The notes: a model not told the origin generated them from the letters alone. A stretch of DNA of 64,000 nucleotides from Armatimonadota bacterium (GCA_013203665.1 JABMPU010000108.1:11092-75091); one strand, 5' to 3'. Positions 13,626 to 50,584 are shown, counted from the stretch's first letter. Program-made: numbers and translations.

Positions 13626-13635
13626 TTCAAAAAAC

Positions 13636-18653: not shown

Positions 18654-18686
18654 CCTTGCGTAAAGATTGTTTCGACTCGAAAAGCT

Positions 18687-18723
18687 CCCCTCTCTTGAAT
18701 CGAAGAGAGGGATCGGGGGTGAG
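18687..18723 (+). repeat. hairpin element CCCCTCTCTT-N6-AAGAGAGGG followed by TCGGGGGTGAG
   Basis: Perfect 9-bp stem in the nikR-fmdE spacer. Same architecture at 54418-54456 and 50035-50065 (both on the minus strand). Confidence 0.7.
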
Positions 18724-18728
18724 TTAAC

Positions 18729-19271: not shown

Positions 19272-19274
19272 CAG

Positions 19275-19985
19275 ATGAGTAATGATATCACTCTTTTAGC
19301 GATCACAGCCGCATCGATCGGCTTTTTTCACACGTTATTCGGACCGGATCATTACTTGCCGTTCATCATGATGTCCAAGGCAAGGAACTGGTCAACTCCC
19401 AAAACTATGCTGATAACTTTTTTGTGTGGATTGGGACATGTAGGTAGCTCGGTAGTTCTGGGAATAATTGGAGTTTCGATAGGAATTGCCATAACCAGGA
19501 TCGAATTTTTTGAATCTTTCCGCGGCAACCTGGCAGCTTGGGCTTTTATTGCATTCGGGCTGGTTTATTTTATCTGGGGAATCCGGCAGGCGATCCGCAA
19601 TAAACCGCATACACATTTGCATATTCACGAGGACAGTACATCTCATGAACACGAACATGCTCACATCAAAGGCCACTCTCATGTGCACGAAAATAAAGGT
19701 AAAACAATCACACCCTGGATTCTCTTCACGATCTTCGTGCTTGGTCCCTGTGAACCTTTAATTCCTATTTTGATGTATCCGGCAGCAAAGAATAATGTCG
19801 GTGGTTTGATCCTGGTCACATCGATCTTTGCCACGGTTACTATTGCTACAATGATGGCTGTGGTTTATGTTACATCAACCGGAATAAAACTAATTCCTAT
19901 GAAGAAAATGGAAAAATATTCCCATGCAATTGCCGGAGCGATAATTTTGTTCAGTGGATTGGGAATACAGTTTCTGGGTCTGTAA
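19275..19985 (+). CDS. nickel/cobalt transporter, NicO/RcnA-like, with His-rich loop
   Basis: Six-TM-like profile. FHTLFGPDH motif. Central loop HTHLHIHEDSTSHEHEHAHIKGHSHVHE. LGPCEPLIP. Confidence 0.6.
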   Translation: MSNDITLLAITAASIGFFHTLFGPDHYLPFIMMSKARNWSTPKTMLITFLCGLGHVGSSVVLGIIGVSIGIAITRIEFFESFRGNLAAWAFIAFGLVYFIWGIRQAIRNKPHTHLHIHEDSTSHEHEHAHIKGHSHVHENKGKTITPWILFTIFVLGPCEPLIPILMYPAAKNNVGGLILVTSIFATVTIATMMAVVYVTSTGIKLIPMKKMEKYSHAIAGAIILFSGLGIQFLGL

Positions 19986-20046
19986 CTCAAAGCTCCCGCT
20001 TTGAGAGTGTGAAATTCGAAATTAAAAAATGAGAAATGGAGAATAA

Positions 20047-20703
20047 ATGGAAACGAAAGAAATTAAAGTGATGCAGAAGATATTGAACATCAATGACAGG
20101 ATCGCAGATGAACTCAGGATTTCGCTAAAAGAAAAAGGGATTCTTTACATAAACCTGATGAGTTCTCCCGGTTCGGGAAAAACCACTCTCCTGGAAAAAA
20201 CCGCAGAGAAATTCGGGAAGAACATCTTTGTTATCGAAGGTGATATCCAAACCACACTCGATGCAGAAAGAGTGGCAAAAGCAGGAATTCGCAGTTTTCA
20301 GATAAACACAGGTCCTTTTGGTGGAGATTGCCATCTGGAATCCGGTTGGATAAAATCTGCCATAGAAGAAATCGACCTGGAAGGAATTGATATTCTATTT
20401 GTAGAAAATATTGGCAATTTGGTGTGTCCGGCCGAATTTGATGTAGGAGCACACATTAATGCAGTGGTTCTCAGTGTAACGGAAGGTGAAGATAAACCGC
20501 TCAAATACCCCCTCGCTTTCAGAAACTCACAGCTTTGTATAATTTCTAAAACCGACCTTCTTCCCTATCTTGATATCAATATAAAAAAGATCAAAGAAAA
20601 CATAAAAAATGTTAATCCTCAAATGGAAGTAATCGAGCTTTCGGCAAAAACAGGTGAAGGATTTGCAGAGTGGGTTGAGTATTTGAAGAAAAATAAAAAA
20701 TAA
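20047..20703 (+). CDS. hypB: hydrogenase nickel incorporation GTPase HypB
   Basis: 218 aa. P-loop MSSPGSGKTTLL, ENIGNLVCP and ISKTDL motifs. Confidence 0.9.
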   Translation: METKEIKVMQKILNINDRIADELRISLKEKGILYINLMSSPGSGKTTLLEKTAEKFGKNIFVIEGDIQTTLDAERVAKAGIRSFQINTGPFGGDCHLESGWIKSAIEEIDLEGIDILFVENIGNLVCPAEFDVGAHINAVVLSVTEGEDKPLKYPLAFRNSQLCIISKTDLLPYLDINIKKIKENIKNVNPQMEVIELSAKTGEGFAEWVEYLKKNKK

Positions 20704-20832: not shown

Positions 20833-21306
20833 ATGTTGCGGAATAAATATGACAATTTCGGAAGATTTCTGGAAGACTTCAAAGTTGGTGATGTTTATCA
20901 ACACAGGAATAAAAAAACTATCACCGAAAGAGATAATAACCTGTTTTGCCAGATAACAATGAATCATCATCCCTTGCACCTTGATAACGAATATGCCGTA
21001 TCAACGATCTACAAGAAAATAGTTGTAGCTGGCACTTTTGTTGCAAGTATCGCAGTAGGTTTGAGTGTGCCTGATATCAGCGGCAAGGCAATTGCTAATC
21101 TGGATTATGAAAAAATTATACATGATGCTCCTGCTTTTCTTGGAGATACGCTTCATGCAGAAACAGAAATTCTGGAAGTAAGGGAATCAAAAACGAAACC
21201 GGCCAGAGGAATAGTATTCGTGGAAACAAGAGCTTATAATCAAAATAACGAAAAAGTACTGACTTTAAAACGACATATATTAATTCCCAAAAGAGAGAAG
21301 AAATGA
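20833..21306 (+). CDS. MaoC-family (hot-dog) enoyl-CoA hydratase/dehydratase
   Basis: FEDFKVGDVYQH...TITERDNNLFCQITMNHHPLHLD pattern. Confidence 0.7.
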   Translation: MLRNKYDNFGRFLEDFKVGDVYQHRNKKTITERDNNLFCQITMNHHPLHLDNEYAVSTIYKKIVVAGTFVASIAVGLSVPDISGKAIANLDYEKIIHDAPAFLGDTLHAETEILEVRESKTKPARGIVFVETRAYNQNNEKVLTLKRHILIPKREKK

Positions 21307-22226
21307 AACATTATATTCTTCGCAGTATGATGTTCGTTCCCGGCAACAACGAAAAACTTTTGAGAAGTGCTTCCCGAACCAATGCAGATGCCCTTATTTT
21401 AGACTTGGAAGATTCTGTGATCGACAACTCGAAACAGGAAGCAAGAGACACGATAAAAAAAATACTCCCAGAGGATATCTTTAAAAAATTCCACGTCTTT
21501 ATACGTTTAAATGATAGAGACAGTGGATTTCTGGAAAAGGACATTTCCAATCTAATGTTAGAAGAAGTTACCGGTTTTGTTTTCCCGAAATCCTATGGGA
21601 AAGATGATATAATTTTCTTTGAGAACCTGCTGGAAAAAAATGAAACAGAAAAAGGATTCCCGAAAGGTAAATTCAAGATCATTCCTCTCATAGAAACTGC
21701 TTCCGCTGTTCTCCATGCAGAAGATATCTGCAGAGCTTCTGAAAGGATAATTGCAGTTGCTTTCGGCAGTGAAGATTTTTGTGCAGATATACAGGGAATC
21801 CACGATAAAGAAGGAAAAAGTCTGCTTGTACCCCGAGCTCTTACTGTAATGGCTGCCAGAGCAACAGGTGTCATTCCGATCGATACACTGCACGTAAATG
21901 TTCACGACCTTGAAGACCTTGAAGATAATCTGAAACTTGCTCGGATTCTGGGTTTCGAAGGAATGCTGCTGCTGCATCCAAAAGAGATAGAACTTGCTCA
22001 TAAATATTTTACTCCCTATCAAAAAGAAGTAGAGGAAGCCAGAGAAATGCTCCGTTTAACGGAAGAAGCAAGAGAAAAAAATACACGTGTAGCAATAATG
22101 AATGGGACTTTCATCGGTCCTCCTATGGTGCGAATTGCAAAGAAAATAATCGAGCGAGATAAACAAATAAAAGAGTGGAAAAATATGAAAACAAATAAAA
22201 TAGATTACCGATTGGATCGGGAATGA
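21303..22226 (+). CDS. HpcH/HpaI aldolase / citrate-lyase beta (CitE)-like acyl-CoA lyase
   Basis: LRSMMFVPGNNEKLL...ADALILDLEDSV N-terminus. 4-nt overlap with the MaoC gene. Confidence 0.7.
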   Translation: MKHYILRSMMFVPGNNEKLLRSASRTNADALILDLEDSVIDNSKQEARDTIKKILPEDIFKKFHVFIRLNDRDSGFLEKDISNLMLEEVTGFVFPKSYGKDDIIFFENLLEKNETEKGFPKGKFKIIPLIETASAVLHAEDICRASERIIAVAFGSEDFCADIQGIHDKEGKSLLVPRALTVMAARATGVIPIDTLHVNVHDLEDLEDNLKLARILGFEGMLLLHPKEIELAHKYFTPYQKEVEEAREMLRLTEEAREKNTRVAIMNGTFIGPPMVRIAKKIIERDKQIKEWKNMKTNKIDYRLDRE

Positions 22227-22249
22227 CAAGGAAACTAACAGGAGTTTAA

Positions 22250-23539
22250 TTGGAAAAATCGATTTTTCAGATTCCTTTTAAAGTTCTAAGAAGATACAGA
22301 TTCTACAAAAGAAGCCAATTCTGGACAAAAACTCAAATTGAACAGTATCAGGACAAACAATTAATAAAACTAGTTCAGCATGCAGGTCAACATGTTCCCT
22401 TTTATCGCGATCTGTTCAAAAATATTGGATTTGATATAAGTACTTTTCGTGGACGAATAGATATGCATAAAATTCCTACTTTAGATAAAGAAATTGTGCG
22501 AACATGTCAGAAAGAACTTATGGCTGATAATGCCGGAAAGTTCGGGATAACCTGGGATTCTACCAGTGGTTCGACAGGAACACCTCTGCATTTTGTTCTG
22601 GATGATGCAGTTCAGGCAAATAAAATAGCAGCACTCCTGCGAAGTTACAGATGGGCAGGTTACAAACTAGGGAAGAAGACGTTCAGTCTGCAAAGTTATT
22701 ACTTCCCGGAACACGATTACAAATTCAATAGATTCTACAACATCCTTCGTTTTGATTCCAACAAATTGAAAAAAGAATCTGCTTTGAATGTAATCAAAGA
22801 GATTAACCGGCTAAAGCCAAAATTTTTTATGGGATTCCCTTTTGATATTCTTATGTTGAGCAATTTTGCGGAGGATGAAGGAATTTCAATTAACTCACCT
22901 CAATCCATTGTAACTTATGGTGAAACACTTTCCCAAAAGAAACGGAAATTTTTGGAAAAAGCCTACAACTGTAAGGTTTTTGATTTCTATTCCCTTCATG
23001 AATGTGCTGCTATGATCTCTGAATGTGAGCATGGTAATCTGCACCTAATCGAGGATTTTGCTTATCATGAGACTTTAGAGGAAAATGGTGTCAGAAGACT
23101 GGTTGGAACAAGTTTCTATAATTATGCATTGCCTTTAATCCGCTATGAAACAAAAGATAATATTGCACTTTCTGAAAAACAGGAAACTTGCTCCTGTGGA
23201 AGACATTTTCGAACTGTAAAAGAGATTGTCGGAAAGCAGTGCGATTACATCGAAACCCCGGATGGTAGATTCCTGGGATCGGTTATGTCACATTCGATAG
23301 ATAATGCCAAAGGTGTTGTCTGTTCACAATGTATCCAAAACGCAATTGACCGGATCGATATCAATATAGTTGTTGATGAAACATATAATGAAGATTCACA
23401 GATTGCATTAGAAAATGGACTTCGGAAAAGATTGGGACATGAGATAAAACTCGTTTTCATGATTGTTCCACAACTCGAAAGAAGCAGAAGTGGAAAAACA
23501 CCTTTCATTATTTCTAAAATCGGAAATAAATATATCTAG
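22250..23539 (+). CDS. phenylacetate-CoA ligase family adenylating enzyme (CapK/F390 synthetase-like)
   Basis: WDSTSGSTGTPLHF AMP-binding motif. TTG start per the track. Confidence 0.65.
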   Translation: MEKSIFQIPFKVLRRYRFYKRSQFWTKTQIEQYQDKQLIKLVQHAGQHVPFYRDLFKNIGFDISTFRGRIDMHKIPTLDKEIVRTCQKELMADNAGKFGITWDSTSGSTGTPLHFVLDDAVQANKIAALLRSYRWAGYKLGKKTFSLQSYYFPEHDYKFNRFYNILRFDSNKLKKESALNVIKEINRLKPKFFMGFPFDILMLSNFAEDEGISINSPQSIVTYGETLSQKKRKFLEKAYNCKVFDFYSLHECAAMISECEHGNLHLIEDFAYHETLEENGVRRLVGTSFYNYALPLIRYETKDNIALSEKQETCSCGRHFRTVKEIVGKQCDYIETPDGRFLGSVMSHSIDNAKGVVCSQCIQNAIDRIDINIVVDETYNEDSQIALENGLRKRLGHEIKLVFMIVPQLERSRSGKTPFIISKIGNKYI

Positions 23540-31848: not shown

Positions 31849-33174
31849 CTAACCTTGTCTTCCGATTCCATAATAAACAAATCCCAGCTCTTTCATTTCT
31901 TTTGGATTATACTGATTACGACCATCAAAAATAATGGGATTATTAAGAAGATTCTTTACTTTAGCAAAATCCGGATAGCGGAACTGGTTCCATTCAGTAA
32001 TCAAGAGAAGAGCATCAGCACCCTTAAGAGCATCATAGTTGCCGTGAGTATATTGTATTTCAGTATTGTCCCCAAACATACGGTTTGCTTCGTCCATAGC
32101 CACGGGATCATAAGCCTGAATCTTTGCTCCAGCTTCGATAAGACCGTTAATAACTGTAATTGAGGTTGCTTCACGCATATCATCTGTTTTCGGTTTGAAG
32201 GCAAGCCCCCAGACAGCAAATGTAAGACCTGCAAGATCATCTCCAAAATGTTTTTTAACTTTCTTAATAAGAACCGTTTTTTGATAGTCATTAACATCTT
32301 CTACTGCCTGTAAAACTCGTGTTTCAGAATTTACTTTTTTTGCCATTTTGATGAGTGCTTTCACATCTTTGGGAAAACAACTGCCGCCATACCCAACTCC
32401 CGGATAGATAAATTTATATCCAATACGCGAATCTGAACCAATCCCATGACGGACTTCAGAAATATCCGCACCCATCAATTCGCAAAGATTAGCAACATCA
32501 TTCATAAAAGAAATCTTAGTTGCCAGCATTGCATTAGCAGCATATTTGGTCATTTCTGCAGAACGAACCGACATGATTATGAGTTTCTCATGACTTCTGG
32601 CAAACGGAGCGTAAAGTTCTTTCAGAATTTCAGCACACTTGGGAGAATCTGTGCCCACAACAACCCTATCAGGTTTCAAGCAATCATTTATGGCATCTCC
32701 TTCTTTCAGGAATTCAGGATTGGAGACAACATCGAATTTATAGTTTACATTTCGTTCATTTAATATTTTTTGAACTTCTTCTTTTACTAAATCTGCAGTA
32801 CCAACCGGAACAGTGGATTTATTGATGATTACCTTATAACCATTCATATATGTTCCAATATCACGCGCCACAGCCAGAACATATTGAAGGTCAGCAGAAC
32901 CGTCTTCACCCGGTGGGGTTCCTACAGCAATAAAACAAATGTTTGTTTTTTCTACAGCATCTTTAATGTCTGTAGTAAAACTCAGCCGTTCCTGCTCGAC
33001 ATTTCGCTGTACCATCTCTTCCAGACCCGGTTCCCAGATAGGAATTTCACCTTTTAACAGCTTATCAATTTTGCGTTTATCGTTATCAACGCAAATCACA
33101 TCATTTCCCATTTCGGCAAAACAGGTACCACTTACAAGTCCAACATAACCGGTTCCAATAACTGATAATTTCAT
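31849..33174 (-). CDS. ugd: UDP-glucose 6-dehydrogenase
   Basis: 441 aa. [14 protein letters not shown]... and GGSCFPKD catalytic Cys motif. Confidence 0.9.
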
Positions 33175-33349
33175 ATAAACTCCTCTTAAAATTTGATAAT
33201 TCAGAAGTGTAAAAGCTTTGAAAACTTAATTATTGTCAATGGAAAAGTGTATTAATATCGGTTCGCAACCATAAAATTAATATTATATTGACGCCTAAAA
33301 AATAAAAATAAATTTATCTCCAAGTTGAAAATGAAAGTAAGGTAGATCT

Positions 33350-34387
33350 ATGATAAAAACAGGAACTATCACAGCTGTTGGAAGCTGGTCATACAAAAAT
33401 GTTGATAAAGCTGTAAATTCGATTTTAGCGAATTTTAAGGATTTACCTGCCTGGCCTCAATTGCCGAAAACTAGTTTTTACGAAAATATGTATGTGCAAT
33501 ATTGTGAGGGATTACCCTGTACTAAAATCGATCCTGAAAATGAGAAAATCTGTTTTGATACTACTCAAGATATTTTACAGCCAATTCAGCAGGTTTATGA
33601 AAATTATCTAACCGAAAATTATGACTATTTCAAGATTTCCGAAAAGTATGCAAAAGGATTATACGATTTCAAAAGAAAAGTGCTGGCAAAAAGTAAATTG
33701 CCAATTGTTAAAGGACAAACTCTTGGACCTGTCAGCTTAGGATTAACCCTCACAGATGAAAACAAAAGATTGATCCTTTATAATGAACAAATGGCAGATG
33801 CAATCGTAAAAACCTGTGTCTGCAAAGCTGTCTGGCAGGCAAAATTCTTAAAGGAAATTGCTGAGCAAATTGTAATTTTTATTGATGAGCCTTACCTTGT
33901 TTCATTTGGTTCTGCTTATGTGAATATAACTCGAGACCAAATCATAACAATGCTGAATGAAATTATCGATAAATTGCATGAGCTCGATGTCATTACCGGT
34001 GTACATTGTTGCGGCAGTACAGACTGGTCTATCTTAATGGATACAAACGTTGATATCATAAATTTCGACGCCTATGAATATGCTGATAGCTTGATGTTAT
34101 ATGCTGAAAAAATTAATGCTTTTCTGATAAAGAATAAATATCTTGCCTGGGGGATTATTCCAACTTCAGAAGACAGAATCTTTTCAGAAACTCCTGAAAG
34201 TTTATATGAAAAACTGTTAATAAAACAAGATGAATTAGCTTCCAAAGGTGTAGATAAAAACAACATTCTCAATAAAACAATCATTACTCCAGCTTGCGGC
34301 ACAGGTTCGTTATCCGAAAAAGCTGCTGATAGAGTTATTGAACTGCTGAAGAATGTTTCTGAATTGTACAAAAAAGGATTATTTTAA
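33350..34387 (+). CDS. Zn-dependent thiol methyltransferase of the MetE C-terminal / MtaA (UroD-like barrel) superfamily; candidate core methionine synthase
   Basis: 345 aa. Putative Zn ligands GVHCCG (HxC) and ITPACGTGS, at the spacing expected for MetE/MT2 enzymes. 1-nt overlap (TAATG) with cooC. Confidence 0.5.
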   Translation: MIKTGTITAVGSWSYKNVDKAVNSILANFKDLPAWPQLPKTSFYENMYVQYCEGLPCTKIDPENEKICFDTTQDILQPIQQVYENYLTENYDYFKISEKYAKGLYDFKRKVLAKSKLPIVKGQTLGPVSLGLTLTDENKRLILYNEQMADAIVKTCVCKAVWQAKFLKEIAEQIVIFIDEPYLVSFGSAYVNITRDQIITMLNEIIDKLHELDVITGVHCCGSTDWSILMDTNVDIINFDAYEYADSLMLYAEKINAFLIKNKYLAWGIIPTSEDRIFSETPESLYEKLLIKQDELASKGVDKNNILNKTIITPACGTGSLSEKAADRVIELLKNVSELYKKGLF

Positions 34388-35163
34388 TGCCGGAACTGAT
34401 CGGATTTATAGGTAAGGGTGGAACCGGGAAATCAACTCTCTCTGCTCTTTTCCTGAAATATGTTCTTGAGAAAAACATCAAACCAATCCTGGTAATAGAT
34501 GCTGATCCCAATAGTTGCCTGCCAGAACTTTTAAACTTAAAAGCAGATAAAACTATTGGCAGTATCCGGCAGGAATTGCTCAATAAAAACAACGAAATAA
34601 GCGCATCTTTTTCCAAATATGATTATTGTGAATATGCTTTGAACAATGCCATTATTGAATCCAGAGGATTTGATTTGGTTGTGATGGGCAGAACTGACGG
34701 TCCAGGTTGTTACTGTTACATAAACAACATTATTAAAACAATGATTGAAAAGCTTAAAAGAAATTACAAACTTATTATTGTAGATTGTGAAGCCGGCTTG
34801 GAGCATCTCAGCAGGAAAACTCTGGGCGAAATCAGTACTGCCTTTATCGTTTCAGATTTATCTCGCAAGGGAATCATAACTGGAGCAAGACAAGTTGAAT
34901 TAATGAAGGAACTTGAAATCAATACCGAAGGAAATTATCTTTTAATAAATAATATGATTGAAGATAAATCTATAGATAAGTTTGAAAATATGATTCAACA
35001 GACAGAAAATGAAAAATTGAAATATCTTGGAGTAATTCATAATGACGAAAATGTTCTAAAATATGAACTCAACCAGGATTCACTGCTGGAATTACCAGGC
35101 AATTCCAAAGCTTTTCTTGACTTAAAAAATATTATCGATGAAATAAATCTGTTTAAAACATAA
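34387..35163 (+). CDS. cooC: CooC/AcsF-type nickel-insertion ATPase
   Basis: IGFIGKGGTGKSTLSA deviant Walker A. CYC motif (GPGCYCYIN). Confidence 0.8.
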   Translation: MPELIGFIGKGGTGKSTLSALFLKYVLEKNIKPILVIDADPNSCLPELLNLKADKTIGSIRQELLNKNNEISASFSKYDYCEYALNNAIIESRGFDLVVMGRTDGPGCYCYINNIIKTMIEKLKRNYKLIIVDCEAGLEHLSRKTLGEISTAFIVSDLSRKGIITGARQVELMKELEINTEGNYLLINNMIEDKSIDKFENMIQQTENEKLKYLGVIHNDENVLKYELNQDSLLELPGNSKAFLDLKNIIDEINLFKT

Positions 35164-35174
35164 AGGAAATTAAT

Positions 35175-37334
35175 ATGTCCAAACAAATAATTGAACTGGC
35201 AATTCAGGGTTATCAAGAGCAATTAAACAACACCAAGGCTGTTGTCCAAAAGACTGAAAACAAAATTCCTGCAGATAAGAAAATTACATTTCCCGAAACT
35301 GCTTATAATTTACCTTTGTATTTTGCTTTTACCGGTAAAAAAATCCATTCCATTTCTGATGCTCAAAATCTAATAGATGAAATAGAGAAAAAGAATTCAA
35401 ACATCATTTCTGCAGATATTGATCTAACTGAAACTCTGGATTTAGGGATCGATACAATTATATTGCAGGAACTGCAATTAGCAGTGGAATCTTCAGCTGG
35501 AGAGCAAATAAACTTTATTCCCGATAATGTTCTTAGATCGCTTGGGGTTCAACTTGTAAGCGGAGATATTTCCGGAATTGCCGTCATAATCGGTGCTGCC
35601 AGGGATGAAGAAACAGCGGTTGAAATCATACGCACTCTTCAGGAGAAAAATATCTTATCAGTTCTTGCTGCTGACTATGAAGGCAAAACAATGTTTGAGC
35701 AACTATCCAATCAAAATGTGGAAATGACGCTTGATACTTATATTGTTCATCTTGGAAATAAAACCGAATCTGTAGTCCTGGGTTTGAACTGGGCAATTAG
35801 AGCAGCCTTAACTTACGGAGGATTAGAAGGTGGGCAGAAGGAAAAATGCCTGAAATACTGCTCAGACCGAATTCCGGCTTTTGCTTTAGTATTAGGCGGA
35901 GTTGATGCCAAAAAAGTAGCGACTGCTGTGGGAGCAATCGCTATGGGATTCCCGATAATTTGTAATTTTGAAGTTCCGGAAATATCAGTTAAGGATGATC
36001 ATGGATTTGAACAGAAGCTGCTGACCTTTGAACTGAACTCGAATAAATTAGTAGAAAAATGTCTCGAAGTTAGAAACATCAAAGTAAAAGTAACTGAAGT
36101 TCCCATTCCGGTAAGATACAGCTCTGCATTTGAAGGGGAAAGGGTTAGAAAAGAGGATGTTGCTTTAGAATTTGGTGGAAAATATTCTAAGGCTTTTGAA
36201 TTTGTAGAAATGAAAAATCTGGATGAGGTTGAAAACGGAAAAATAGAGGTTATTGGTAAAAAAATTAATGAGGTTGAAGAAAGTTCTGCTTTACCTCTGG
36301 GAATAGTAGTTTATGTAGCTGGACGAAAAATGCAAAAAGATTTTGAGCCGATACTTGAAATACGGTTTCATAATTTTTTAAACCAGGCAACTGGAATAAT
36401 GCATATCGGGCATCGCAGTTTTGTCTGGCTCAGAATCAGCAAAGAAGCCAAAAAAGCGGGATTTAAAATCAAACATCTGGGCACAATCCTGCAAACAAAA
36501 TTTCTCGATGAATTTCATTCGATAATAGATAAAGTTGAGATCCATATTTATACTGAACTGGAAATGATTAATAAATTCATGCCAACCGCAGAAAAACTCT
36601 ATCATGAGCGAGATCAGAGAATGGGAGCAATGACTGATGAAAGTGTTGATGTTTTTTATTCCTGCACGCTCTGCCAGTCTTTTGCACCCAACCATGTCTG
36701 CATTATTACTCCAGAGCGTCTCGGACTTTGCGGAGCATACAACTGGTTAGATGGAAAAGCTGCTTTTCAGATTAGTCCCACAGGTCCAAACCAACCGGTG
36801 GAAAAAGGTGAGGTTGTCAATGCAGAGATCGGGGAATGGGAAGGAGTGAATGAATTTGTTTATAAAGCCTCAAATAATACTCTGGAAAGGTTTAGTGCTT
36901 ATTCTTTGATAAAATACCCGATGACCTCCTGTGGCTGTTTTGAATGCATTATTGCCATCCTGCCGGGAACTGGCGGTTTTATGATTGTGGATCGTACTTT
37001 TCTGGAAATGACACCCTGCGGCATGACTTTTTCCACTCTGGCCGGAGTTGTGGGAGGTGGACAGCAAACTCCCGGATTTCTTGGAATTGGCTTGAATTAT
37101 ATTGTCAGTAAAAAATTCGTTTCTGCAGAAGGGGGATTAAAACGTTTAGTTTGGATGCCTTCTTATGTTAAAGAAAGATTCAGAGAAAAACTTGATAAGC
37201 GTGCTGATGAATTAGTTGTTCCCGGTTTAGTGGACAAGATTGCAGATGAAACTATCTGTTCAGATTTAGCAGGATTGATTGAATTTCTAGCTGAAAAAGA
37301 TCATCCAGCACTTAAAATGGGTGAACTAATATAA
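35175..37334 (+). CDS. acsB: acetyl-CoA synthase (A-cluster subunit, AcsB/CdhC)
   Basis: 719 aa. CTLCQSFAPNHVC and the A-cluster MTSCGCFECI motif. Confidence 0.85.
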   Translation: MSKQIIELAIQGYQEQLNNTKAVVQKTENKIPADKKITFPETAYNLPLYFAFTGKKIHSISDAQNLIDEIEKKNSNIISADIDLTETLDLGIDTIILQELQLAVESSAGEQINFIPDNVLRSLGVQLVSGDISGIAVIIGAARDEETAVEIIRTLQEKNILSVLAADYEGKTMFEQLSNQNVEMTLDTYIVHLGNKTESVVLGLNWAIRAALTYGGLEGGQKEKCLKYCSDRIPAFALVLGGVDAKKVATAVGAIAMGFPIICNFEVPEISVKDDHGFEQKLLTFELNSNKLVEKCLEVRNIKVKVTEVPIPVRYSSAFEGERVRKEDVALEFGGKYSKAFEFVEMKNLDEVENGKIEVIGKKINEVEESSALPLGIVVYVAGRKMQKDFEPILEIRFHNFLNQATGIMHIGHRSFVWLRISKEAKKAGFKIKHLGTILQTKFLDEFHSIIDKVEIHIYTELEMINKFMPTAEKLYHERDQRMGAMTDESVDVFYSCTLCQSFAPNHVCIITPERLGLCGAYNWLDGKAAFQISPTGPNQPVEKGEVVNAEIGEWEGVNEFVYKASNNTLERFSAYSLIKYPMTSCGCFECIIAILPGTGGFMIVDRTFLEMTPCGMTFSTLAGVVGGGQQTPGFLGIGLNYIVSKKFVSAEGGLKRLVWMPSYVKERFREKLDKRADELVVPGLVDKIADETICSDLAGLIEFLAEKDHPALKMGELI

Positions 37335-37359
37335 ACGAAAATTTTTTAGGAAATAGAAT

Positions 37360-38310
37360 ATGGAATTTGAAAAACCGTTGGCAGAATGGAAAGGACAAGT
37401 TCAGGAAATTAAGTTATCAGACAAAGTAATTATTGGCGGAGAGCAGGTTTTTCCAAATTACTCTTTTGATGGAAAATGCTCGAACAAACCTGCTGTGGCA
37501 ATTGAAATAAATGATGTATTTCCCGAAAACTGGCCTGAAAATCTTAAAGAAATCTGGAATACTGATACTTTAAAATCGCCAGTTGAAAGGGCAAAAAAAG
37601 CAGAAAAAGAATTCGGGGCTGACATCATCTTTTTTGATATGATCGGTACACATCAGGACAGGGAAAATATATCTGCCAATCAGGCTGCAGAAAATATGAA
37701 TGCCATCTTAAAAGCAGTAGATACTCCTGTAATAGTTAGACCTGATGGTAATTTTGAAAAGCAGAATAAAATTTTCGCAAAATGCTGCGAACTGGCAGAA
37801 AGACAGATTATTATTGGCTCAGCAAAAGAAGACAATTACAGAACAATCACTGCTTCTGCTCTGGCTGGCAATCATTTCATAATCGCTGAAGCACCGATCG
37901 ATGTAAACATTCAGAAACAATTAAATATTCTGATTACCCAAATGAATTTCCCGCTTGAAAGAATTATCATGGATCCCATGACCGGCGGTTTAGGTTACGG
38001 CTTTGAATATACTTATTCTGTAATGGAACGAATCCGATTACAGACTTTTATGGATGATCCTTTTATGATTCCTCCCATGGTTTGCTGTGTGGGACAGGAA
38101 ACCTGGAAAATCAAGGAAATTAAAATTGAAGATGAGAAATACGGCAGCAAACCGGAAAGAGGAATTAATTGGGAAACAACAACTGCGATTGGCTTGATAC
38201 TTTCAGGAGCAAATATCGTTGTGGTTCGTCATCCTGAGTCTGTTATTAAAATAAAGAATTTTATTGATTCTATCTATCAAAAAAGCGATTGCTTACAGCA
38301 GGGGATATAA
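37360..38310 (+). CDS. acsD: corrinoid iron-sulfur protein small subunit (AcsD/CdhD)
   Basis: 316 aa, TIM-barrel-like, positioned between acsB and acsC. Confidence 0.7.
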   Translation: MEFEKPLAEWKGQVQEIKLSDKVIIGGEQVFPNYSFDGKCSNKPAVAIEINDVFPENWPENLKEIWNTDTLKSPVERAKKAEKEFGADIIFFDMIGTHQDRENISANQAAENMNAILKAVDTPVIVRPDGNFEKQNKIFAKCCELAERQIIIGSAKEDNYRTITASALAGNHFIIAEAPIDVNIQKQLNILITQMNFPLERIIMDPMTGGLGYGFEYTYSVMERIRLQTFMDDPFMIPPMVCCVGQETWKIKEIKIEDEKYGSKPERGINWETTTAIGLILSGANIVVVRHPESVIKIKNFIDSIYQKSDCLQQGI

Positions 38311-38312
38311 TT

Positions 38313-39638
38313 ATGGCACTTACAGGATTACAAATTTTTAAACTTCTACCAAATAAGAATTGTGGGGAGTGTGATGTTCCCACCTGCCTGGCTTTTGCTA
38401 TGAAACTTGCCGGCAAAATTGCCGAACCTCAAGCTTGTCCATATATTTCAGATGAAGCAATGGAAATTCTGGGAGCAGCTCAAACACCACCTATTAAAAA
38501 AATAATTTTCAAAAATGGAGAAAAGGAGATTTCCATTGGTGCGGAAACCGTGATGTTCAGGCATGAAAAAACTTTCGTTAATCAAACTCTCATAGCTTTG
38601 GAAATGACTGATAATCTAAGTGCTGAAGAATTTGAAAACGAATTGAAAAGAATTGAAAGTTATAAATATGAACGAGTCGGAGAAAGGCTTGAACCGGAAT
38701 GTATTTCATTAAAAAATGTGTCTGATGACAAAAATAATTATCTGCTAAAGCTGGAAACAATTCAATCCAAAACTGAAAAGATAATTATCTTAAGCGATTG
38801 CAATGCTGAAATCATTAAAGAAGCAATGCAGCTTGTTGATAATAAAAGATTAATCCTAAATAAAGTTGAAGATCTGAGCGAGACACTCAATATAATTTCT
38901 GACACTCAAACTCCAATTGTTTTATCTGCAAAGAATATTGAAGAATTACTGGAGAAAGTTGAAAAATGTGAAGCTCAAAATTTCAAAAATATAATTTTAT
39001 CAATAGACTTTAATAATCTAAATGAATTATTGGAAAACAATGTTTTGCTGAGAAGATCGGCAATAGAAAAAGGATTCAAACTTGCCGGATATCCCATTTT
39101 AACAGAATGTACCGAAGAAGACGAGTTGCATTCAGCAATCCTGGGAATCTGCAAATATTCATCAATTGTCCTCCTGAAAAAGTTTTCCGGTGCTTCACTA
39201 TTTCCGCTTCTAACCTTAAGACAGAATATTTTCACTGACCCGCAGAAACCTCTGCAAATCGACCCTGGAATTTACCAGGTTGGGGAGCCGGATGAAAGTT
39301 CTCCCCTGATAGTTACAACAAATTTTTCTTTAACCTATTTTATCGTGTCCGGTGAAATCGAAAACTCTATTTCTCCAGCCTGGTTGTGTATAGTGGATGC
39401 TGAAGGAATGTCGGTTTTAACAGCCTGGTCTGCCAATAAATTTTCCGGAGAAATCGTGGGCAAAGCCATCTTGAATTCCGGAATTGAGGAAAAGATAAAT
39501 CATAAAAAAGTTATCATTCCCGGTTATGTGGCTATTATCAGAGGAGAGCTTGAGGATAAACTTCCGGAATGGGAAATATTGGTCGGACCGCAGGAAGCAG
39601 CGGATATTCCAAAATATTTAAAAGAAATCTGGAAATGA
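38313..39638 (+). CDS. acsC: corrinoid iron-sulfur protein large subunit (AcsC/CdhE)
   Basis: Start MALTGLQIFKLLPNKNCGECDVPTCLAFAMKLA (N-terminal 4Fe-4S motif). ATG at 38313 lies right after the acsD stop. Confidence 0.8.
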   Translation: MALTGLQIFKLLPNKNCGECDVPTCLAFAMKLAGKIAEPQACPYISDEAMEILGAAQTPPIKKIIFKNGEKEISIGAETVMFRHEKTFVNQTLIALEMTDNLSAEEFENELKRIESYKYERVGERLEPECISLKNVSDDKNNYLLKLETIQSKTEKIIILSDCNAEIIKEAMQLVDNKRLILNKVEDLSETLNIISDTQTPIVLSAKNIEELLEKVEKCEAQNFKNIILSIDFNNLNELLENNVLLRRSAIEKGFKLAGYPILTECTEEDELHSAILGICKYSSIVLLKKFSGASLFPLLTLRQNIFTDPQKPLQIDPGIYQVGEPDESSPLIVTTNFSLTYFIVSGEIENSISPAWLCIVDAEGMSVLTAWSANKFSGEIVGKAILNSGIEEKINHKKVIIPGYVAIIRGELEDKLPEWEILVGPQEAADIPKYLKEIWK

Positions 39639-41404
39639 AAAATTTAAAATTAATTTCAGGTGATTTTACCAAAGAAATTCAGGTTAAAGAAAACACCAAT
39701 TTATTATATGCCATTCAGGAAAGCGGCTTGTTCATCGATGCTCCCTGTGGAGGAAACAGTGTTTGCAAAAAATGCACGGTTTTCATTGATGGCAAATCCT
39801 GTTTAGCCTGCCAGACTTTTGTGAACAAAGATTTGATTGTTATTTTGCCTGAATACAGTAATCTTGTAGTTGAAGAAGATAAAAACCATTTTATAGAAAA
39901 ATTCAAAGATATCAAGATTAATCCAATTATTCAAAAAATTGAGATCTTCATTAATCCAGAGGAAAGAATCTCTTATCAATCTGATCTTGAGTATTTTAAA
40001 AGCCTTCTGAAAAAAGCAGGTTTTGAGATTTTTATTCCATCAGATGTTGAATTGCTGTCGAAAATATCAAAAGCAACTCACAAAAAAAACACCTTCACAA
40101 TCTATCTTTTTGAAGAGAATAATAAATATGAAATCGTTGATATTATTGAAGGCACAAACCTTAAAAATCTGGGAATTGCGATTGACCTGGGAACGACCAC
40201 AATTTCTATTGCTCTGCTCGATTTAGATTCAGGAATTTTTATTGATTCCATAACTTTTTATAATCCGCAGATTATCTATGGAGCAGATATTATTCATCGC
40301 ATTGTTTTTGCTCAGAAAAATGATGGAGCTGAAATCTTACAGAAAAAAGTCCTGGAAGAACTGAATCAAAGTATCAGCTCTTTATGTATGAAAAATAATC
40401 TTTCAGCTAATGAAATAAAATCTGTTGTCCTTTCAGGAAATACAACCATGATCCATCTATTTCTGGGATTACCCTCAAAATTTATTCGAGAAACGCCTTA
40501 TAGTCCGGTAATGCAAAAATTTCCAATATTGAATTCAAATTCATTCATCGATATAATAAAAAAAGGTAAACTTTTTGTAATGCCTTGTGTGGCAAATTAT
40601 CTGGGCGGAGACTTGGTTTCCGGAATTATTTCCTGTGATTTACACAAAAAAGATGAGATAAATATCCTGCTTGATATTGGTACAAATGGTGAGATAGTCA
40701 TTGGCAATAAAGATTGGCTGATTGGCTGCGCCTGTTCTGCCGGACCTGCTTTTGAGGGAATGGGTCTTAATTGTGGAGTGAGATTCAAACAAGGTGCAAT
40801 CACAGAAGTATCTTATGAAAATAATAAATTTGTCTATAGCATTGCTGGTAATTCAAAACCTTGCGGCATCAGTGGCACAGGAATTATCAGCCTGATCAAA
40901 CATCTGAAAGAACAAAAACATATTGATAATCGAGGAAAATTTACTGAAAAAGTTAAAGACAAAATCGATCACAGAAAAGCTTTTATACTATTCAAAAAAG
41001 AAGAGACTTTCAACAATGAATTTATCTATGTTGATGAAACCGATATTGATAATATCCTGCGAGCAAAAGCAGCTATTTATTCCGGAATAAGCCTGCTTTT
41101 GAAAAAATTATCTCTTGATATTTCTGAGATTGATAATATGTTTATTGCAGGTGGGATTGGTAATTCCTTGAACATTAATAATGCCTTGGAAATCGGATTG
41201 TTCCCTCGAATGCGAAAGGAAAAAATTGTATTTATCGGGAATTCTTCATTAACCGGCGCAATTAAATTTTTACTTTCAAGAGAAAGCAGAGATGAAACTA
41301 ATGATCTATTTCCTAAAGTAACTTACATCGACTTAAGTAACGAACCATCCTATATGGATGAATTCATGGCAGCATTGTTTATTCCTCATACAAACCAGAT
41401 TTGA
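39635..41404 (+). CDS. reductive activator of corrinoid Fe-S protein (RACo-like: 2Fe-2S ferredoxin plus ASKHA ATPase)
   Basis: N-terminal CGGNSVCKKC...C..C plant-type ferredoxin motif. DLGTTT and DIGTNGE ASKHA phosphate motifs. ATGA overlap with acsC. Confidence 0.75.
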   Translation: MKNLKLISGDFTKEIQVKENTNLLYAIQESGLFIDAPCGGNSVCKKCTVFIDGKSCLACQTFVNKDLIVILPEYSNLVVEEDKNHFIEKFKDIKINPIIQKIEIFINPEERISYQSDLEYFKSLLKKAGFEIFIPSDVELLSKISKATHKKNTFTIYLFEENNKYEIVDIIEGTNLKNLGIAIDLGTTTISIALLDLDSGIFIDSITFYNPQIIYGADIIHRIVFAQKNDGAEILQKKVLEELNQSISSLCMKNNLSANEIKSVVLSGNTTMIHLFLGLPSKFIRETPYSPVMQKFPILNSNSFIDIIKKGKLFVMPCVANYLGGDLVSGIISCDLHKKDEINILLDIGTNGEIVIGNKDWLIGCACSAGPAFEGMGLNCGVRFKQGAITEVSYENNKFVYSIAGNSKPCGISGTGIISLIKHLKEQKHIDNRGKFTEKVKDKIDHRKAFILFKKEETFNNEFIYVDETDIDNILRAKAAIYSGISLLLKKLSLDISEIDNMFIAGGIGNSLNINNALEIGLFPRMRKEKIVFIGNSSLTGAIKFLLSRESRDETNDLFPKVTYIDLSNEPSYMDEFMAALFIPHTNQI

Positions 41405-41416
41405 GGCTATAAACAG

Positions 41417-41444
41417 AAAAAGGAAGCATCTCTGCTTCCTTTTC
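41417..41444. terminator. bidirectional terminator between the acs cluster and ahcY
   Basis: AGGAAGCA-TCTC-TGCTTCCT perfect 8-bp stem, with AAAA upstream and TTT downstream. Confidence 0.7.
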
Positions 41445-41511
41445 GTAATTGTTAAAAATTATCTTAAAAACTTACTTCTCGAAATTTACTTCAGGCTTAA
41501 TATTCTCCTTC

Positions 41512-42918
41512 TTAATACCTGTAATGCTCTGGTTTATAAGGACCTTCAATGGGAATATTAATATATTCAGATTGTTCTTTGGTCATTACAGTTAAATTTA
41601 CGCCAAGTTTTTCCAGATGAAGTCTGGCAACTTCTTCATCCAATTCTTTAGAAAGTCTATAAACCTTTTTCTCATGCTCTTTTTTCCAGAGTTCTATCTG
41701 AGCTAACACCTGATTAGAAAAAGAATTGCTCATAACAAATGATGGATGTCCGGTGGCATTTCCAAGATTCACCAGACGTCCCTCAGATAAAAGAATAATA
41801 GAATGACCATCAGGGAAACGGATTTCATCAACTTGAGGTTTGATATTGATTTTCATTACTCCCGGAGTTTCTAATAATTGATCAACCTGTATTTCATTAT
41901 CAAAATGTCCGATATTGCAGACAATAGCTTTATCCTTCATCTTCTGCATATGTTCCACGCGAATCACTTCAAGATTGCCGGTAGCAGTTACAAAAACATC
42001 ACCTTCATCAAAAGTATCTTCAAGAACCTTAACCCTGAAACCTTCCATAGCTGCCTGAAGTGCACAAATCGGATCAATCTCAGTTATGATTATTTTTGCC
42101 CCAAAACCACGCATAGACTGAGCACAACCCTTGCCAACATCACCATAACCGCAAATCACAATCGTTTTACCCGCTATCATTACGTCGGTTCCTCTTTTGA
42201 TGCCATCAGCAAGCGATTCACGACAACCATAAATATTATCAAATTTAGATTTCGTAACAGAATCATTCACATTGATCGCTGGAAAAAGCAGAGTACCATC
42301 TTCCAATTGCTGATAAAGCCTATGAACACCTGTAGTAGTTTCTTCTGAAATGCCCTTCATTTCAGCTACGATTTTATGCCATTTATCAGGGTTTTTCTCC
42401 AAGTCCTGAATAATAAGATTATGTATAATATTCAATTCTTTATTTGATGTATCAGCTTGTGGAAGTTTCCCTGTTTTCTTATACTTTTCTTCCAGATAAT
42501 ACCCCTCATAAACAAAAAGAGTGGCATCTCCTCCATCATCCACAATAAGATGCGGACCTTTATTATTTTCATGTGCTAAAGCCTTTTTCGTACACCACCA
42601 GTATTCTTCCAGAGATTCACCTTTCCATGCAAAAACAGGAGTGCCTGTTCTGGCAATCTCTGCTGCAGCATGATCCTGTGTGGAAAAAATATTACAGCTT
42701 GCCCAGCGGATATCAGCTCCCAATTCCTTTAAAGTTTCAATCAAAACAGCGGTTTGAATAGTCATGTGAAGACTACCTGTAATACGAGCTCCAGCCAGAG
42801 GTTTCTGTTCTCTATATTTTTCACGAATTGCCATTAAACCCGGCATTTCAACTTCTGCTAATTCAATCTCTTTCCTGCCAAAGTCAGCAAGATTCATATC
42901 AGCAATTTTATAATCCAT
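41512..42918 (-). CDS. ahcY: S-adenosyl-L-homocysteine hydrolase
   Basis: [29 protein letters not shown]... NAD fold GYGDVGKG. C-terminal [12 protein letters not shown] at 42918 is preferred over the track start at 42987. Confidence 0.9.
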
Positions 42919-43045
42919 CTTCTCTCCTTTTATAGCTCGCGGATTTTTACGAATGCAGGATGTATCATTCTGATGCGTCCGAAACATTACGGTTCAATCT
43001 GCAAGAATGAACCTGCAAAGCTAAGTTTTTTTATAATTCATAATT

Positions 43046-43942
43046 TTAAAATATTACACTTTCCCGAATTTTTTCTTTTCGGATCTCGATCATCTCGAAA
43101 GTCAAGTCCTTAACTCTTTCCAGACTAAATGATTCCACGCAAAACGACGCCATGATCGTACCGTAAATCATGGCATTACGAATCGTATCTTTATCAAAAT
43201 TATCTTTCCGTGTAAGATATCCCATAAAACCACCAGCAAAACTATCGCCTGCCCCGGTCGGATCAACAGCTTTTTTCACTGGATAAACAGGTGCAAAGAA
43301 AATGAAATTATCTCCAATACACACTGAACCATGTTCACCACATTTGATGACAACTATCTTTGGTCCGAATGAAAGAGCAATTTCAGCTGCTTGATAAATA
43401 TTGCTTTCATTAATAAGCATCTTTATCTCTTCTTCATTAATAAAAAGAATATCAACTTTTTTTATAACTTTTAGAAGTGCATCTTTATTACCAGAAATCC
43501 AGAAATTCATGGTGTCGCAAGCAGTAACCTTAGGATCTTGCATCTGAACCAAAACTCTCAATTGCAGAACCGGATCAATATTCCCTAAAAATACATAATT
43601 ACATTTTTTATAATTTTCAGGAATCCTGGGATTGAATTCGGCAAAGACATTAAGCTGAGTATCAAGGGTTTCAGCTCGATTCAAGTCGTTATAAACTCCT
43701 TTCCAGCGAAACGTTTTTCCCGGAACAATTTCCATTCCTTCCGTATCAATATCATTAGATTTAAGCAATTCAATATGTTCTTTGGGAAAATCTTCGCCGA
43801 CAACTCCCACAATATTGGTCTGACAAAAGTTCTTACTTGCCATCGAGGTATAAACAGTAGAACCGCCAAGAATGTCCTCTCTTTTACCAAAAGGAGTAAA
43901 TACTGTGTCCAGGGCTATCGAACCTACGATTAATAAACTCAT
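43046..43942 (-). CDS. PfkB-family kinase (adenosine kinase-like by context)
   Basis: 298 aa. C-terminal [13 protein letters not shown] PfkB signature. Sits between metK and ahcY. Confidence 0.65.
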
Positions 43943-45102
43943 TTTATCTTTTCAGCCTTTTTCTTCAGAATATCAACTTTATCCGTTTTTTCCCAGGTGA
44001 ATTCTTCTAATTCACGACCAAAATGACCATAGGCTGCAGTAAGTTTATAGATTGGACGTCTCAATTTAAGATGATTAATTATTCCATTTGGAGTCAGGGG
44101 AAAAACTTCGCGAACAATTTCCATCAGTTTATCATCCGGGATTTTTCCTGTGCCGAATGTATTCACAAAAACTGAGACCGGCTCAGCCACACCAATGGCG
44201 TAAGCAAGCTGAACCTCACATTCCTTTGCCAGTTCTGCAGCTACAATATTTTTGGCAATATACCTTGCACAATAAGCTGCGCTTCTATCCACCTTGGATG
44301 GATCTTTGCCCGAAAATGCTCCGCCGCCGTGTCTGCCCATTCCGCCATAAGTATCTACAATTATTTTCCTTCCCGTAAGACCGGCATCTGCTTGAGGACC
44401 TCCAATAATGAAAGCTCCCGTAGGATTAACATGAATTGTTGTGTCGTTGTCGATATACTCTCCGCAGGCCGGTTTTATTGCGTATTTGATGATATCGGCT
44501 TTTATCTTATCATGAGTTACGTCGGGACTGTGCTGATTGGATACAACAATAGTATGAACTCTTTGCGGAACAATGTCCTCGTATTCTACAGTAACCTGAG
44601 ATTTACCATCCGGACCTAAATAAGATAATGTTCCATTCTTTCTGATTTCAGCAAGTTTCTTTGTAAGCCCGTGAGCTAACATAATCGGCAGGGGCATTAA
44701 CTGTGGAGTTTCATTAACTGCATAGCCAAACATCATACCCTGATCCCCGGCACCTTGCTCTTTATGCAATCCTTTTCCAGAAGAAACTCCCTGACTTATA
44801 TCAGGTGATTGTGGAACAATGCTGGAAAAAACACCGCAATTTCCAGCATCGATTCCCAGCTTGCTGTGATCATAACCGATTTCATAAAGTGTCTTTCTAA
44901 CAATTTTATCAACATCAACAAACCCATGAGTTGTAACTTCTCCAAAAACCCACACAGCTCCATTTTTTGTGGCTGTTTCAACAGCAACTCTAGATTCCGG
45001 ATCTTGCCTTAAACATTCATCGAGAATTGCATCACTAATCTGATCACAAATTTTATCCGGATGGCCTTCTGTAACAGATTCCGAAGTGAATAAACTTTTC
45101 AT
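43939..45102 (-). CDS. metK: S-adenosylmethionine synthetase
   Basis: [48 protein letters not shown]. Confidence 0.95.
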
Positions 45103-46300: not shown

Positions 46301-46675
46301 TTAAAGAGACCATTTCTCCGGATGTTTTAGCATATTCACAAGCTTTCCGATAATATGATCATATTTTTTATCAAGTTTTTCTCTTTGATTTTTATTAATA
46401 TAACCACATTTACATGAAAACTCTAACCAAACTTGTGTCTCTGCTGCTTCTCCTTCAGAATCAGAAAGTTTTGCAACAAACGCTTTTTCATATCTTCTTT
46501 TACGAAATGCTTCTGCAATATTTGATGAAACTGATCTTGAACTTCTCCTAATTTGATCAACTAAGGAATACAATTCTTCTTTTGGATAAGATTTTGTTAA
46601 TTCAAATATTTCCATTGCAGTCTCAAAAGCCAATTTATAAACATCTAAATCTTTATGTGTATGAATTATCTTCAT
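46301..46675 (-). CDS. four-helix-bundle protein (23S rRNA intervening-sequence protein / Avd family)
   Basis: DLDVYKLAFETAMEIFELTKSYPKEELYSLVDQIRRSSRSVSSNIAEA...E..TQVWLEF pattern. Confidence 0.8.
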   Translation of the reverse strand: MKIIHTHKDLDVYKLAFETAMEIFELTKSYPKEELYSLVDQIRRSSRSVSSNIAEAFRKRRYEKAFVAKLSDSEGEAAETQVWLEFSCKCGYINKNQREKLDKKYDHIIGKLVNMLKHPEKWSL

Positions 46676-50230: not shown

Positions 50231-50584
50231 TTATAATGATTTTATTTTTTGCGAAGCTGAAATTGAGCCAAGAATTTTTTTAAGTTCATCAGATTCTGTT
50301 ATTAATTTATCTAATTCAATTTGGTCGCCAAGCCTTAATGCTTTTAATATTTTCAGCCAGTAAGCTGTCTCTCGTGCTTCTTTCAATGATATTTTAATCT
50401 TATTATAAAAGTCAGCTTTAGATGAAGCTGCCTGTGATTCTTCGTAGTTAGCTCCCATTGAAGAACTACATTTAGTTAGCTGATATCTGATTACATTATT
50501 TTCTACAGATTGGGGAATTGTCTTTAAGAATTTGATGACTGCTACTGCAAATTCCAGAAACCGTTTACTCAAATCTTGTTTCAC
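50231..50584 (-). CDS. four-helix-bundle protein (23S rRNA IVS / Avd family), second copy
   Basis: ...YQLTKCSSSMGANYEESQAASSKADFYNKIKISLKEARETAYWLKIL. GTG start. Flanked by GGATAAG and AAGTATAA short repeats. Confidence 0.8.
   Translation of the reverse strand: MKQDLSKRFLEFAVAVIKFLKTIPQSVENNVIRYQLTKCSSSMGANYEESQAASSKADFYNKIKISLKEARETAYWLKILKALRLGDQIELDKLITESDELKKILGSISASQKIKSL

Follow-up and report, generated by a model that had tools for sequence, protein, structure and literature searches.

In Dehalococcoides mccartyi, the methyl group of methionine derives from the C2 carbon of acetate by cleavage of acetyl-CoA, with release of CO (Zhuang 2014, as cited in PMC7005905). The core-MetE protein of this organism, cbdbA481, is encoded in one operon with metK and ahcY and uses methylcobalamin, not methyl-tetrahydrofolate (methyl-THF), and direct methyl transfer from the two subunits that form the corrinoid iron-sulfur protein (CFeSP), AcsCD, was proposed (Deobald 2020, PMC7005905). 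The family was later named MesB; 123 of 123 MesB proteomes contain AcsC or AcsD, and mesB-acsC-acsD operons occur in methanogens (Price 2021, PMC7857596). More recently, the methionine-methyl model was extended to Auribacterota that lack carbon monoxide dehydrogenase (CODH; Williams 2022, PMC9324843). Here we describe a locus from a 64-kb stretch of DNA (the window), part of a 104,976-bp contig of a metagenome-assembled genome (MAG) labelled Armatimonadota. In this locus a mesB-type gene heads an operon encoding acetyl-CoA synthase (ACS), the CFeSP and a corrinoid activator, and the operon converges on genes of the S-adenosylmethionine (SAM) cycle. The locus is probably a self-contained methyl supply of the Dehalococcoides type that serves methionine and SAM synthesis.

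This reading is supported by the identities of the genes, the ligand set of MesB, conserved gene linkages, an operon free of CODH, an intact A-cluster, and ratios of nonsynonymous to synonymous substitution (dN/dS) of 0.10–0.14. An earlier note, made from the DNA alone, had proposed that methyl groups may be shuttled between acetyl-CoA and homocysteine via the CFeSP without folate; the MesB family, the recurrence of its linkages and the loss of CODH from the operon all support that proposal. The note also named a precedent in Dehalococcoides, including a core MetE that uses methylcobalamin, and this agrees with published work (PMC7005905, PMC7857596). The novelty that it implied was overstated; the pathway idea had been published and already applied to CODH-less MAGs (PMC9324843). 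The model of methyl flow from acetyl-CoA through methyl-CFeSP to homocysteine belongs to earlier authors (Zhuang 2014, Deobald 2020, Price 2021), and the locus is an explicit new example of it. The system had not been noted before in this lineage; the kind of system is already known. New here are the presence of all parts in one locus, the apparent excision of CODH from an ancestral operon, and purifying selection on the genes that remain.

Open reading frame (ORF) listing and profile searches confirmed a six-protein operon on the plus strand, with the gene content and order given in the earlier note, and its convergence on metK, a PfkB kinase gene and ahcY on the minus strand (41512–45102; Table 1). 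The operon had been described as tightly coupled by overlaps of 1–4 nt. The coupling stands, but overlaps do not occur at all junctions: only three are present, at mesB/cooC (1 nt), acsC/RACo (4 nt) and metK/pfkB (4 nt). The remaining plus-strand junctions have gaps of 11, 25 and 2 nt, and the pfkB-ahcY gap is 58 or 127 nt, depending on which ahcY start is chosen; the ahcY gene call in L005 is 468 aa long (L numbers denote comparison loci). A terminator-like hairpin separates the two convergent units. Because the independent assembly L005 (Logan SRR28106079) has the identical arrangement, the locus is not a misassembly. A promoter scan was uninformative, since it found 43 sites where 40 were expected by chance. 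No riboswitch or leader upstream of mesB matched Rfam, either at the gathering threshold across the whole window or at E≤1 within 33100–33420.

Table 1. The mesB-acs operon and the convergent SAM-cycle genes, in window coordinates
Feature	Position	Strand	Remarks
mesB	33350..34387	+	MesB / core-MetE type Zn methionine synthase (predicted), 345 aa; deposited as 'hypothetical protein' NQV18368.1
CooC-family P-loop ATPase	34387..35163	+	Pfam CbiA and AAA_31
acsB	35175..37334	+	acetyl-CoA synthase, A-cluster subunit; NF040764 921 bits (cutoff 800)
acsD	37360..38310	+	NF003376 348 bits (cutoff 280); Pfam CdhD
acsC	38313 (deposited start)..39638	+	NF003195 505 bits (cutoff 306); Pfam FeS and CdhD; deposited product 441 aa
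RACo-type ATP-dependent reductive activator of corrinoid protein	39635 (deposited start)..41404	+	Pfam RACo_C_ter, Raco_middle and Fer2; deposited product 589 aa
terminator-like hairpin	41417..41444	both	stem of 11–12 pairs; consensus match only
ahcY, S-adenosylhomocysteine hydrolase	41512..42987, likely true start 42918 (468 aa)	-	TIGR00936 624 bits (cutoff 498)
PfkB-family kinase	43046..43942	-	Pfam PfkB
metK, S-adenosylmethionine synthetase	43939..45102	-	TIGR01034 572 bits (cutoff 309)

The first gene of the operon encodes a protein that, judged by its sequence and its modelled fold, is a member of the MesB/core-MetE family. Its zinc ligands had been given as an HxC...C pattern, and they are indeed present as H219-C220-C221 and C316; D240 completes the set as a fourth ligand. 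H219, C221 and D240 are invariant in all 80 sequences of a family alignment and C316 is kept in 79 of them, and a 19-sequence alignment gave the same ligands. The ligand spacing (+2/+19/+76) is that of positions 215/217/236/312 in the CBDB1 enzyme (PMC7005905), and an aspartate in place of MetE Glu665 as a zinc ligand is a hallmark of the characterised Dehalococcoides enzyme (PMC7857596, PMC7005905). Positions aligned to homocysteine-binding residues are likewise kept, S12 wherever the column is reached and D179 in 80 of 80 sequences. Against 11 Dehalococcoidia/Dehalococcoidaceae orthologues the protein scores 276–300 bits, with two truncated ORF calls at 246–247 bits, and the lowest score over all 79 family members is 246 bits. 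Price 2021 assigned proteins to MesB at 173 bits or more (phmmer) to DET0516, for which the Dehalococcoidia orthologues stand in here as a proxy; both CFeSP subunits, acsD and acsC, are encoded in the same operon. The window protein is 40–42% identical, over its full length, to Dehalococcoidia proteins whose genes are linked with ahcY and metK.

Profile and structure searches differ in how readily they reveal this relationship. The protein has 3717 homologues at E≤0.001, several of them labelled methionine synthase by NCBI. The earlier note had suggested searching this ORF with family models, which yielded little: Pfam matched nothing, with Meth_synt_2 falling short of E≤0.001, and the sole curated NCBIfam match was MtbA, at 26 bits. 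The structure prediction suggested alongside was more informative. An AlphaFold2 model (pLDDT 92.3, pTM 0.91) has a MetE-type barrel, and the best Foldseek matches were MetE of Thermotoga maritima and 3RPD, the core synthase of Shewanella (query-normalised TM 0.57–0.61), followed by uroporphyrinogen decarboxylase (URO-D). The model comprises a single (βα)8 domain like the C-terminal domain of MetE, and the folate-binding domain of the N terminus is missing. A sequence search against the PDB gave chance matches only, so that the relationship is visible at the fold level alone, and we found no solved structure of a MesB-family protein in the PDB. By analogy with the Dehalococcoides enzyme, the window MesB would methylate homocysteine from a methyl-corrinoid rather than from 5-methyl-THF. 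Because its database entry reads 'hypothetical protein' and the methionine-synthase models of Pfam and NCBIfam all fail to match it, mesB here will be missed by automated reconstructions of the methionine pathway.

AcsB aligns end to end with a CODH-bound ACS (PDB 6ytt, 649 bits, residues 10–717). Its A-cluster ligands are intact (Cys497, 500, 509 and 519, and C586-G587-C588), and the CGCFEC motif reported in the earlier note lies at residues 586–591 of a protein that scores above the NF040764 cutoff. AcsC carries the N-terminal Fe-S domain PF04060, and both AcsC and AcsD score above their curated cutoffs. The activator has the complete RACo domain set (PF00111, PF17651 and PF14574, for the [2Fe-2S] ferredoxin, middle and C-terminal ASKHA ATPase domains) and scores 498 bits with the narrower AcsV model of NCBIfam, under its cutoff of 800.

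The CooC-like protein has a P-loop and a CxC at residues 108–110, in a 'GPGCYC' context. It scores 50 bits to the CooC1 structure 3kje, as against 144 bits for the 'GCxCPE' paralogue encoded in related operons, which places it in a distinct subgroup, probably outside the CooC1 type. It may be an ACS-specific (AcsF-like) nickel maturase. Across the window and loci L001–L087, CooC proteins fall into two classes by the context of their nickel motif: the 'GPGCYC' class adjoins mesB, and the 'GCxCPE' class is CooC1-like. A 'GPGCYC' CooC also occurs in the Elusimicrobia loci L008 and L011, where neither cooS nor any acs gene lies within 10 kb.

The convergent unit carries the SAM-cycle genes. Its PfkB kinase scores 319 bits to PDB 3kd6, which we take to be a nucleoside kinase; four Chloroflexota loci have a homologue with 48–52% identity placed between mesB and ahcY. 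The protein is probably an adenosine or nucleoside kinase that clears the adenosine made by AhcY; the position of those homologues agrees with an adenosine kinase by which product inhibition of AhcY is relieved.

Across the 64 kb, Pfam detected neither CODH (Prismane) nor AcsE (Pterin_bind), MetF, Fhs or FolD in the ORFs of at least 115 aa, essentially all of which were scanned, and this bears out the absences listed in the earlier note; the canonical pairing of acsB with AcsA/CooS and AcsE is thus not seen within the window. Comparison with related operons indicates how the CODH came to be missing. In the closest CODH-bearing relatives (L001, L086 and L087; MesB 64–72% and AcsB 54–61% identical to the window's), cooS, usually cooF, and a gene for an FAD oxidoreductase lie between cooC and acsB. 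In the window the cooC-acsB spacer is 11 nt, and it is 11–13 nt across the window and a sibling with 90% identity (L003/L004). Since the nearest relatives hold the cooS module where the window and its sibling have a short spacer, the loss of CODH is derived and clean. By these comparisons, this clade descends from an ancestor with a CODH/ACS operon headed by mesB and has excised the CODH from it; the excision predates the split between the window and L003 (dS ∼0.4). As to the rest of the genome, a search with the Liberimonas operon CooS placed no protein of this MAG in its 120 best matches (floor ∼60% identity); that list hints that the MAG has no orthologous CODH elsewhere, although a divergent CODH would escape it.

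The remaining genes mesB, cooC and acsB are under purifying selection. Their dN/dS values against L003 are 0.138, 0.095 and 0.106, respectively, and those of flanking genes are 0.12–0.20. In L003, the homology with the window breaks off precisely at the stop codon of acsB. Beyond it lie 600 nt of non-coding DNA (L003:13986–14586) with 27-nt inverted repeats and 22–31-nt direct repeats, a stretch that resembles the scar of a rearrangement or a small repeat element. Past the repeats, NERD/UPF0102 and GWxTD genes stand in place of the acsD-to-metK block.

To place these linkages more broadly, we surveyed 80 mesB loci from about ten phyla in a collection of species-representative genomes, by local tblastn and ORF clustering. 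Three arrangements recur. One has mesB at the head of a cooC-cooS-(cooF-FAD oxidoreductase)-acsB-acsD-acsC-RACo operon, as in Clostridia, LCP-89, Latescibacterota, Leptospiraceae and others (including L001, L086 and L087); mesB is the first gene of cooC-cooS-acsB-acsD-acsC-RACo operons in at least eight loci from several phyla. A second arrangement, in Chloroflexota including Dehalococcoidia, joins mesB to genes for an IF-2B/MtnA-like protein and a PNP_UDP_1 phosphorylase, sometimes PfkB, and then ahcY and metK. In such loci, with their MtnA-like and methylthioadenosine-phosphorylase-like genes, ahcY accompanies mesB in 24 of the 80 loci and metK in 15. In the third, found in Omnitrophota and Planctomycetia, mesB is followed by the C-terminal half of hypF, then hypD and hypE. 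Beyond these types, mesB of L055 lies within a complete Wood-Ljungdahl pathway (WLP) cluster with AcsE, CooS and formate dehydrogenase, and the Auribacterota locus L007 reads mesB-acsB-acsD-acsC-RACo, with neither cooS nor cooC. The neighbourhood survey that the earlier note had called for therefore shows that the mesB-acs and mesB-ahcY/metK linkages each recur across phyla. None of the 80 surveyed loci has acs genes together with ahcY or metK; the window has both, and the description of its physical linkage as unusually explicit is justified to that extent.

These parts suggest the following route. The CooC-like ATPase would insert nickel into AcsB, which would cleave acetyl-CoA into CoA, CO and a methyl group carried by the CFeSP; corrinoid that is accidentally oxidised would be re-reduced by RACo. 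MesB would activate homocysteine at its zinc site (H219, C221, D240 and C316) and receive the methyl group directly from methyl-CFeSP, so that methionine could be formed without methyl-THF. MetK would convert methionine to SAM and, after methyl transfer, AhcY would split S-adenosylhomocysteine into homocysteine and adenosine, the latter being removed by the PfkB kinase. We infer the direct transfer from CFeSP to MesB, the direction of cleavage, the release of CO and the substrate of the PfkB kinase.

Several points weigh against such a dedicated supply, and some of them favour a serious though rather unlikely alternative: an ordinary Wood-Ljungdahl organism with a split layout, in which CODH, AcsE, MetF, Fhs and FolD are encoded elsewhere and ACS/CFeSP works in the synthetic direction or reversibly. 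MesB would then simply tap the pool of methyl-CFeSP, a role that Price et al. suggest for it in acetogens and sulfate reducers. AcsB is full length, aligns throughout with an ACS that binds CODH, and keeps the N-terminal CODH-docking domain (PF18537), which would be needless in a CODH-less shunt; yet systems of the D. mccartyi type, too, are reported to function in its absence. The evidence covers 64 kb of one MAG, and CODH, AcsE, MetF, MetH and MetE could lie elsewhere in it. The 90% sibling has no acsD, acsC or RACo gene beside acsB, so the linkage is not fixed within the genus. We found no paper that reports a biochemical test of methyl-CFeSP as methyl donor for any member of the MesB family. 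In addition, mesB also sits in complete WLP clusters such as that of L055, and the MvhD-like and HdrA-like proteins and hydrogenase of the window could provide the low-potential electrons of an ordinary pathway. Set against this alternative, every close CODH-bearing relative carries its CODH inside this very operon, from which it is cleanly missing here; this MAG contributes none of the 120 best matches to CooS of the operon type; and the CooC paralogue that was retained is probably not of the CooC1 type. Moreover, both Dehalococcoidia and Auribacterota include documented genomes with ACS/CFeSP and no CODH (PMC7005905, PMC9324843).

Two further explanations seem far less probable. The 345-aa protein might be a methyl-corrinoid:thiol methyltransferase for another acceptor, of the MtaA/MtbA-like coenzyme M type or acting on a small thiol. 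Its sole curated match is indeed a weak one to MtbA, Meth_synt_2 does not reach significance, and some MesB paralogues may have other partners (Price et al., PMC7857596). However, we think this very improbable given its full-length identity to the ahcY- and metK-linked Dehalococcoidia proteins, which are linked like the characterised enzyme, the conservation of homocysteine-binding positions S12 and D179, the Foldseek ranking of methionine synthases ahead of URO-D, and the presence of the SAM cycle in the same locus. Alternatively, the cluster might be what is left of a CODH/ACS operon that no longer functions and is decaying towards loss. The CODH genes are gone, and in the sibling acsD, acsC and RACo are missing from that place as well, with repeat-rich non-coding DNA at the junction. 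Decay would scarcely leave dN/dS values of 0.10–0.14, near those of the flanking housekeeping genes, and all ORFs are intact, all metal ligands are present, and AcsB, AcsC and AcsD exceed their curated cutoffs. Given these substitution ratios and unbroken ligand sets, we rejected a decaying pseudo-operon and give it hardly any credence.

The self-contained methyl supply that we favour most resembles that of D. mccartyi (cbdbA481/DET0516), which shares AcsB, AcsC/AcsD, a MesB with the H-x-C/D/C zinc site, the proximity of mesB to metK and ahcY, and the same proposed methyl flow. The two differ in organisation. The neighbours of mesB in the Dehalococcoidia loci are SAM-cycle and salvage genes, and none of the acs genes is found within 10 kb, whereas the window has mesB, the acs genes, RACo and the SAM-cycle genes side by side. 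The organisms are also unrelated (window GC ∼35%, labelled Armatimonadota; MesB ∼41% identical), and the absence of CODH, AcsE and MetF has been shown genome-wide for Dehalococcoides, whereas for the window it covers 64 kb. The Auribacterota locus L007 likewise has a CODH-less ACS/CFeSP module headed by mesB, which the authors who described the CODH-less module took to be a source of methionine methyl groups. It differs from the window in lacking both a CooC-like gene and SAM-cycle genes next to the module, and its proteins are 37–50% identical to the window's, which points to an independent loss of CODH in another phylum.

Liberimonas-like and other operons (L001, L086, L087, L012, L066 and L068) contain the closest homologues, in the same order and orientation and with mesB first, but encode the catalytic subunit of CODH and electron-transfer partners between cooC and acsB where the window has its 11-nt spacer. 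Methanogen mesB-acsC-acsD operons (Price 2021, Fig 3B) similarly link mesB to CFeSP genes; these belong to archaeal Cdh-type complexes with complete pathways, and their description mentions no linkage to RACo or the SAM cycle. The chemistry would parallel that of MetH, in which a methyl-Co(III) corrinoid is attacked by homocysteine as a Zn-activated thiolate and which depends on a dedicated function for reductive reactivation. In MetH, however, the corrinoid, folate-binding and SAM-dependent reactivation domains are part of the enzyme itself, whereas in the window the corrinoid would reside on a separate Fe-S protein, the methyl group would come from acetyl-CoA via ACS, and reactivation would fall to the ATP-dependent RACo.

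More tentatively, and as something short of an even chance, we propose that this lineage independently turned a complete mesB-cooC-cooS-cooF-FAD oxidoreductase-acsBDC-RACo operon into a dedicated acetyl-CoA-to-methionine shunt beside the SAM cycle, with CODH cleanly excised and the AcsF-like nickel insertase alone kept. The Dehalococcoides solution would then have arisen convergently for a third time. If so, and as mesB heads the CODH/ACS operons of many phyla, methionine methyl supply would be a primary and ancient output of ACS/CFeSP, one that can outlive carbon fixation itself. The comparison of the window with its CODH-bearing relatives offers a dated, clean case of reductive evolution of the Wood-Ljungdahl carbonyl branch, and suggests that CO-releasing, CODH-less ACS modules are more widespread in uncultured anaerobes than Dehalococcoidia alone. 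The compact gene set from a single organism (MesB, AcsB, AcsCD, RACo and one nickel insertase) also suits reconstitution in vitro, with acetyl-CoA + homocysteine → methionine + CO + CoA as the target reaction and direct transfer between CFeSP and MesB as its hypothetical step.

The window's Armatimonadota label is doubtful, because cluster-mates with at least 90% identity carry Cloacimonadota labels. NCBI labels the MAG Armatimonadetes/Armatimonadota, and the conflicting labels are those of the cluster-mates of MetK and of the hydrogenase subunit; the closest relatives of the operon are labelled Elusimicrobia. A 46-genome survey of Cloacimonadota reported no ACS in that phylum.

Other mesB neighbourhoods contain further associations. 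The link between mesB and the hypF half-gene, seen in L013, L016, L019, L021, L023, L024, L028, L029, L031 and L060, is without an obvious explanation; hypF begins 7–84 nt after mesB in most of these loci, 437 nt after it in L060 and ∼2 kb after it in L028. In L001, from a Ca. Liberimonas-like MAG, a gene on the minus strand (L001:897–1502) encodes a stand-alone 201-aa MetH reactivation domain (PF02965, Met_synt_B12). It is located ∼1.6 kb upstream of mesB, and the interval contains a gene of the tRNA U5-methyltransferase family.

Within the window, the locus is flanked by envelope-sugar genes. Farther upstream, two regions (1244–10948 and 18240–20703) share a nickel and hydrogenase theme. Minus-strand genes at 1244–4591 encode an F420-non-reducing hydrogenase small-subunit-like protein and MvhD-like and HdrA-like proteins, and these regions also encode a HycI protease, HypF, HypD, HypE, HypA, NikR (18240–18653), an FmdE-domain protein and HypB/CobW. 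One could speculate that these proteins share a nickel supply and low-potential electrons with ACS and RACo. The stretch from 13000 to 18000 has a GC content of 0.28–0.33 and encodes a helix-turn-helix protein, a DUF5677 protein and several ORFs without a family match; it may be a mobile or defence island. At 20833–23539, a gene for a MaoC-like (mesaconyl-CoA hydratase-like) dehydratase overlaps by 4 nt a gene for an HpcH/citrate-lyase-beta-like aldolase, which is followed after a 23-nt gap by a 429-aa ORF without a Pfam match; together these may form an acyl-CoA C–C lyase module. Finally, two 23S rRNA intervening-sequence proteins (PF05635, a four-helix bundle) are encoded on the minus strand at 46301–46675 and 50231–50584, and one of their genes overlaps the start of an oxidoreductase gene just upstream of metK.

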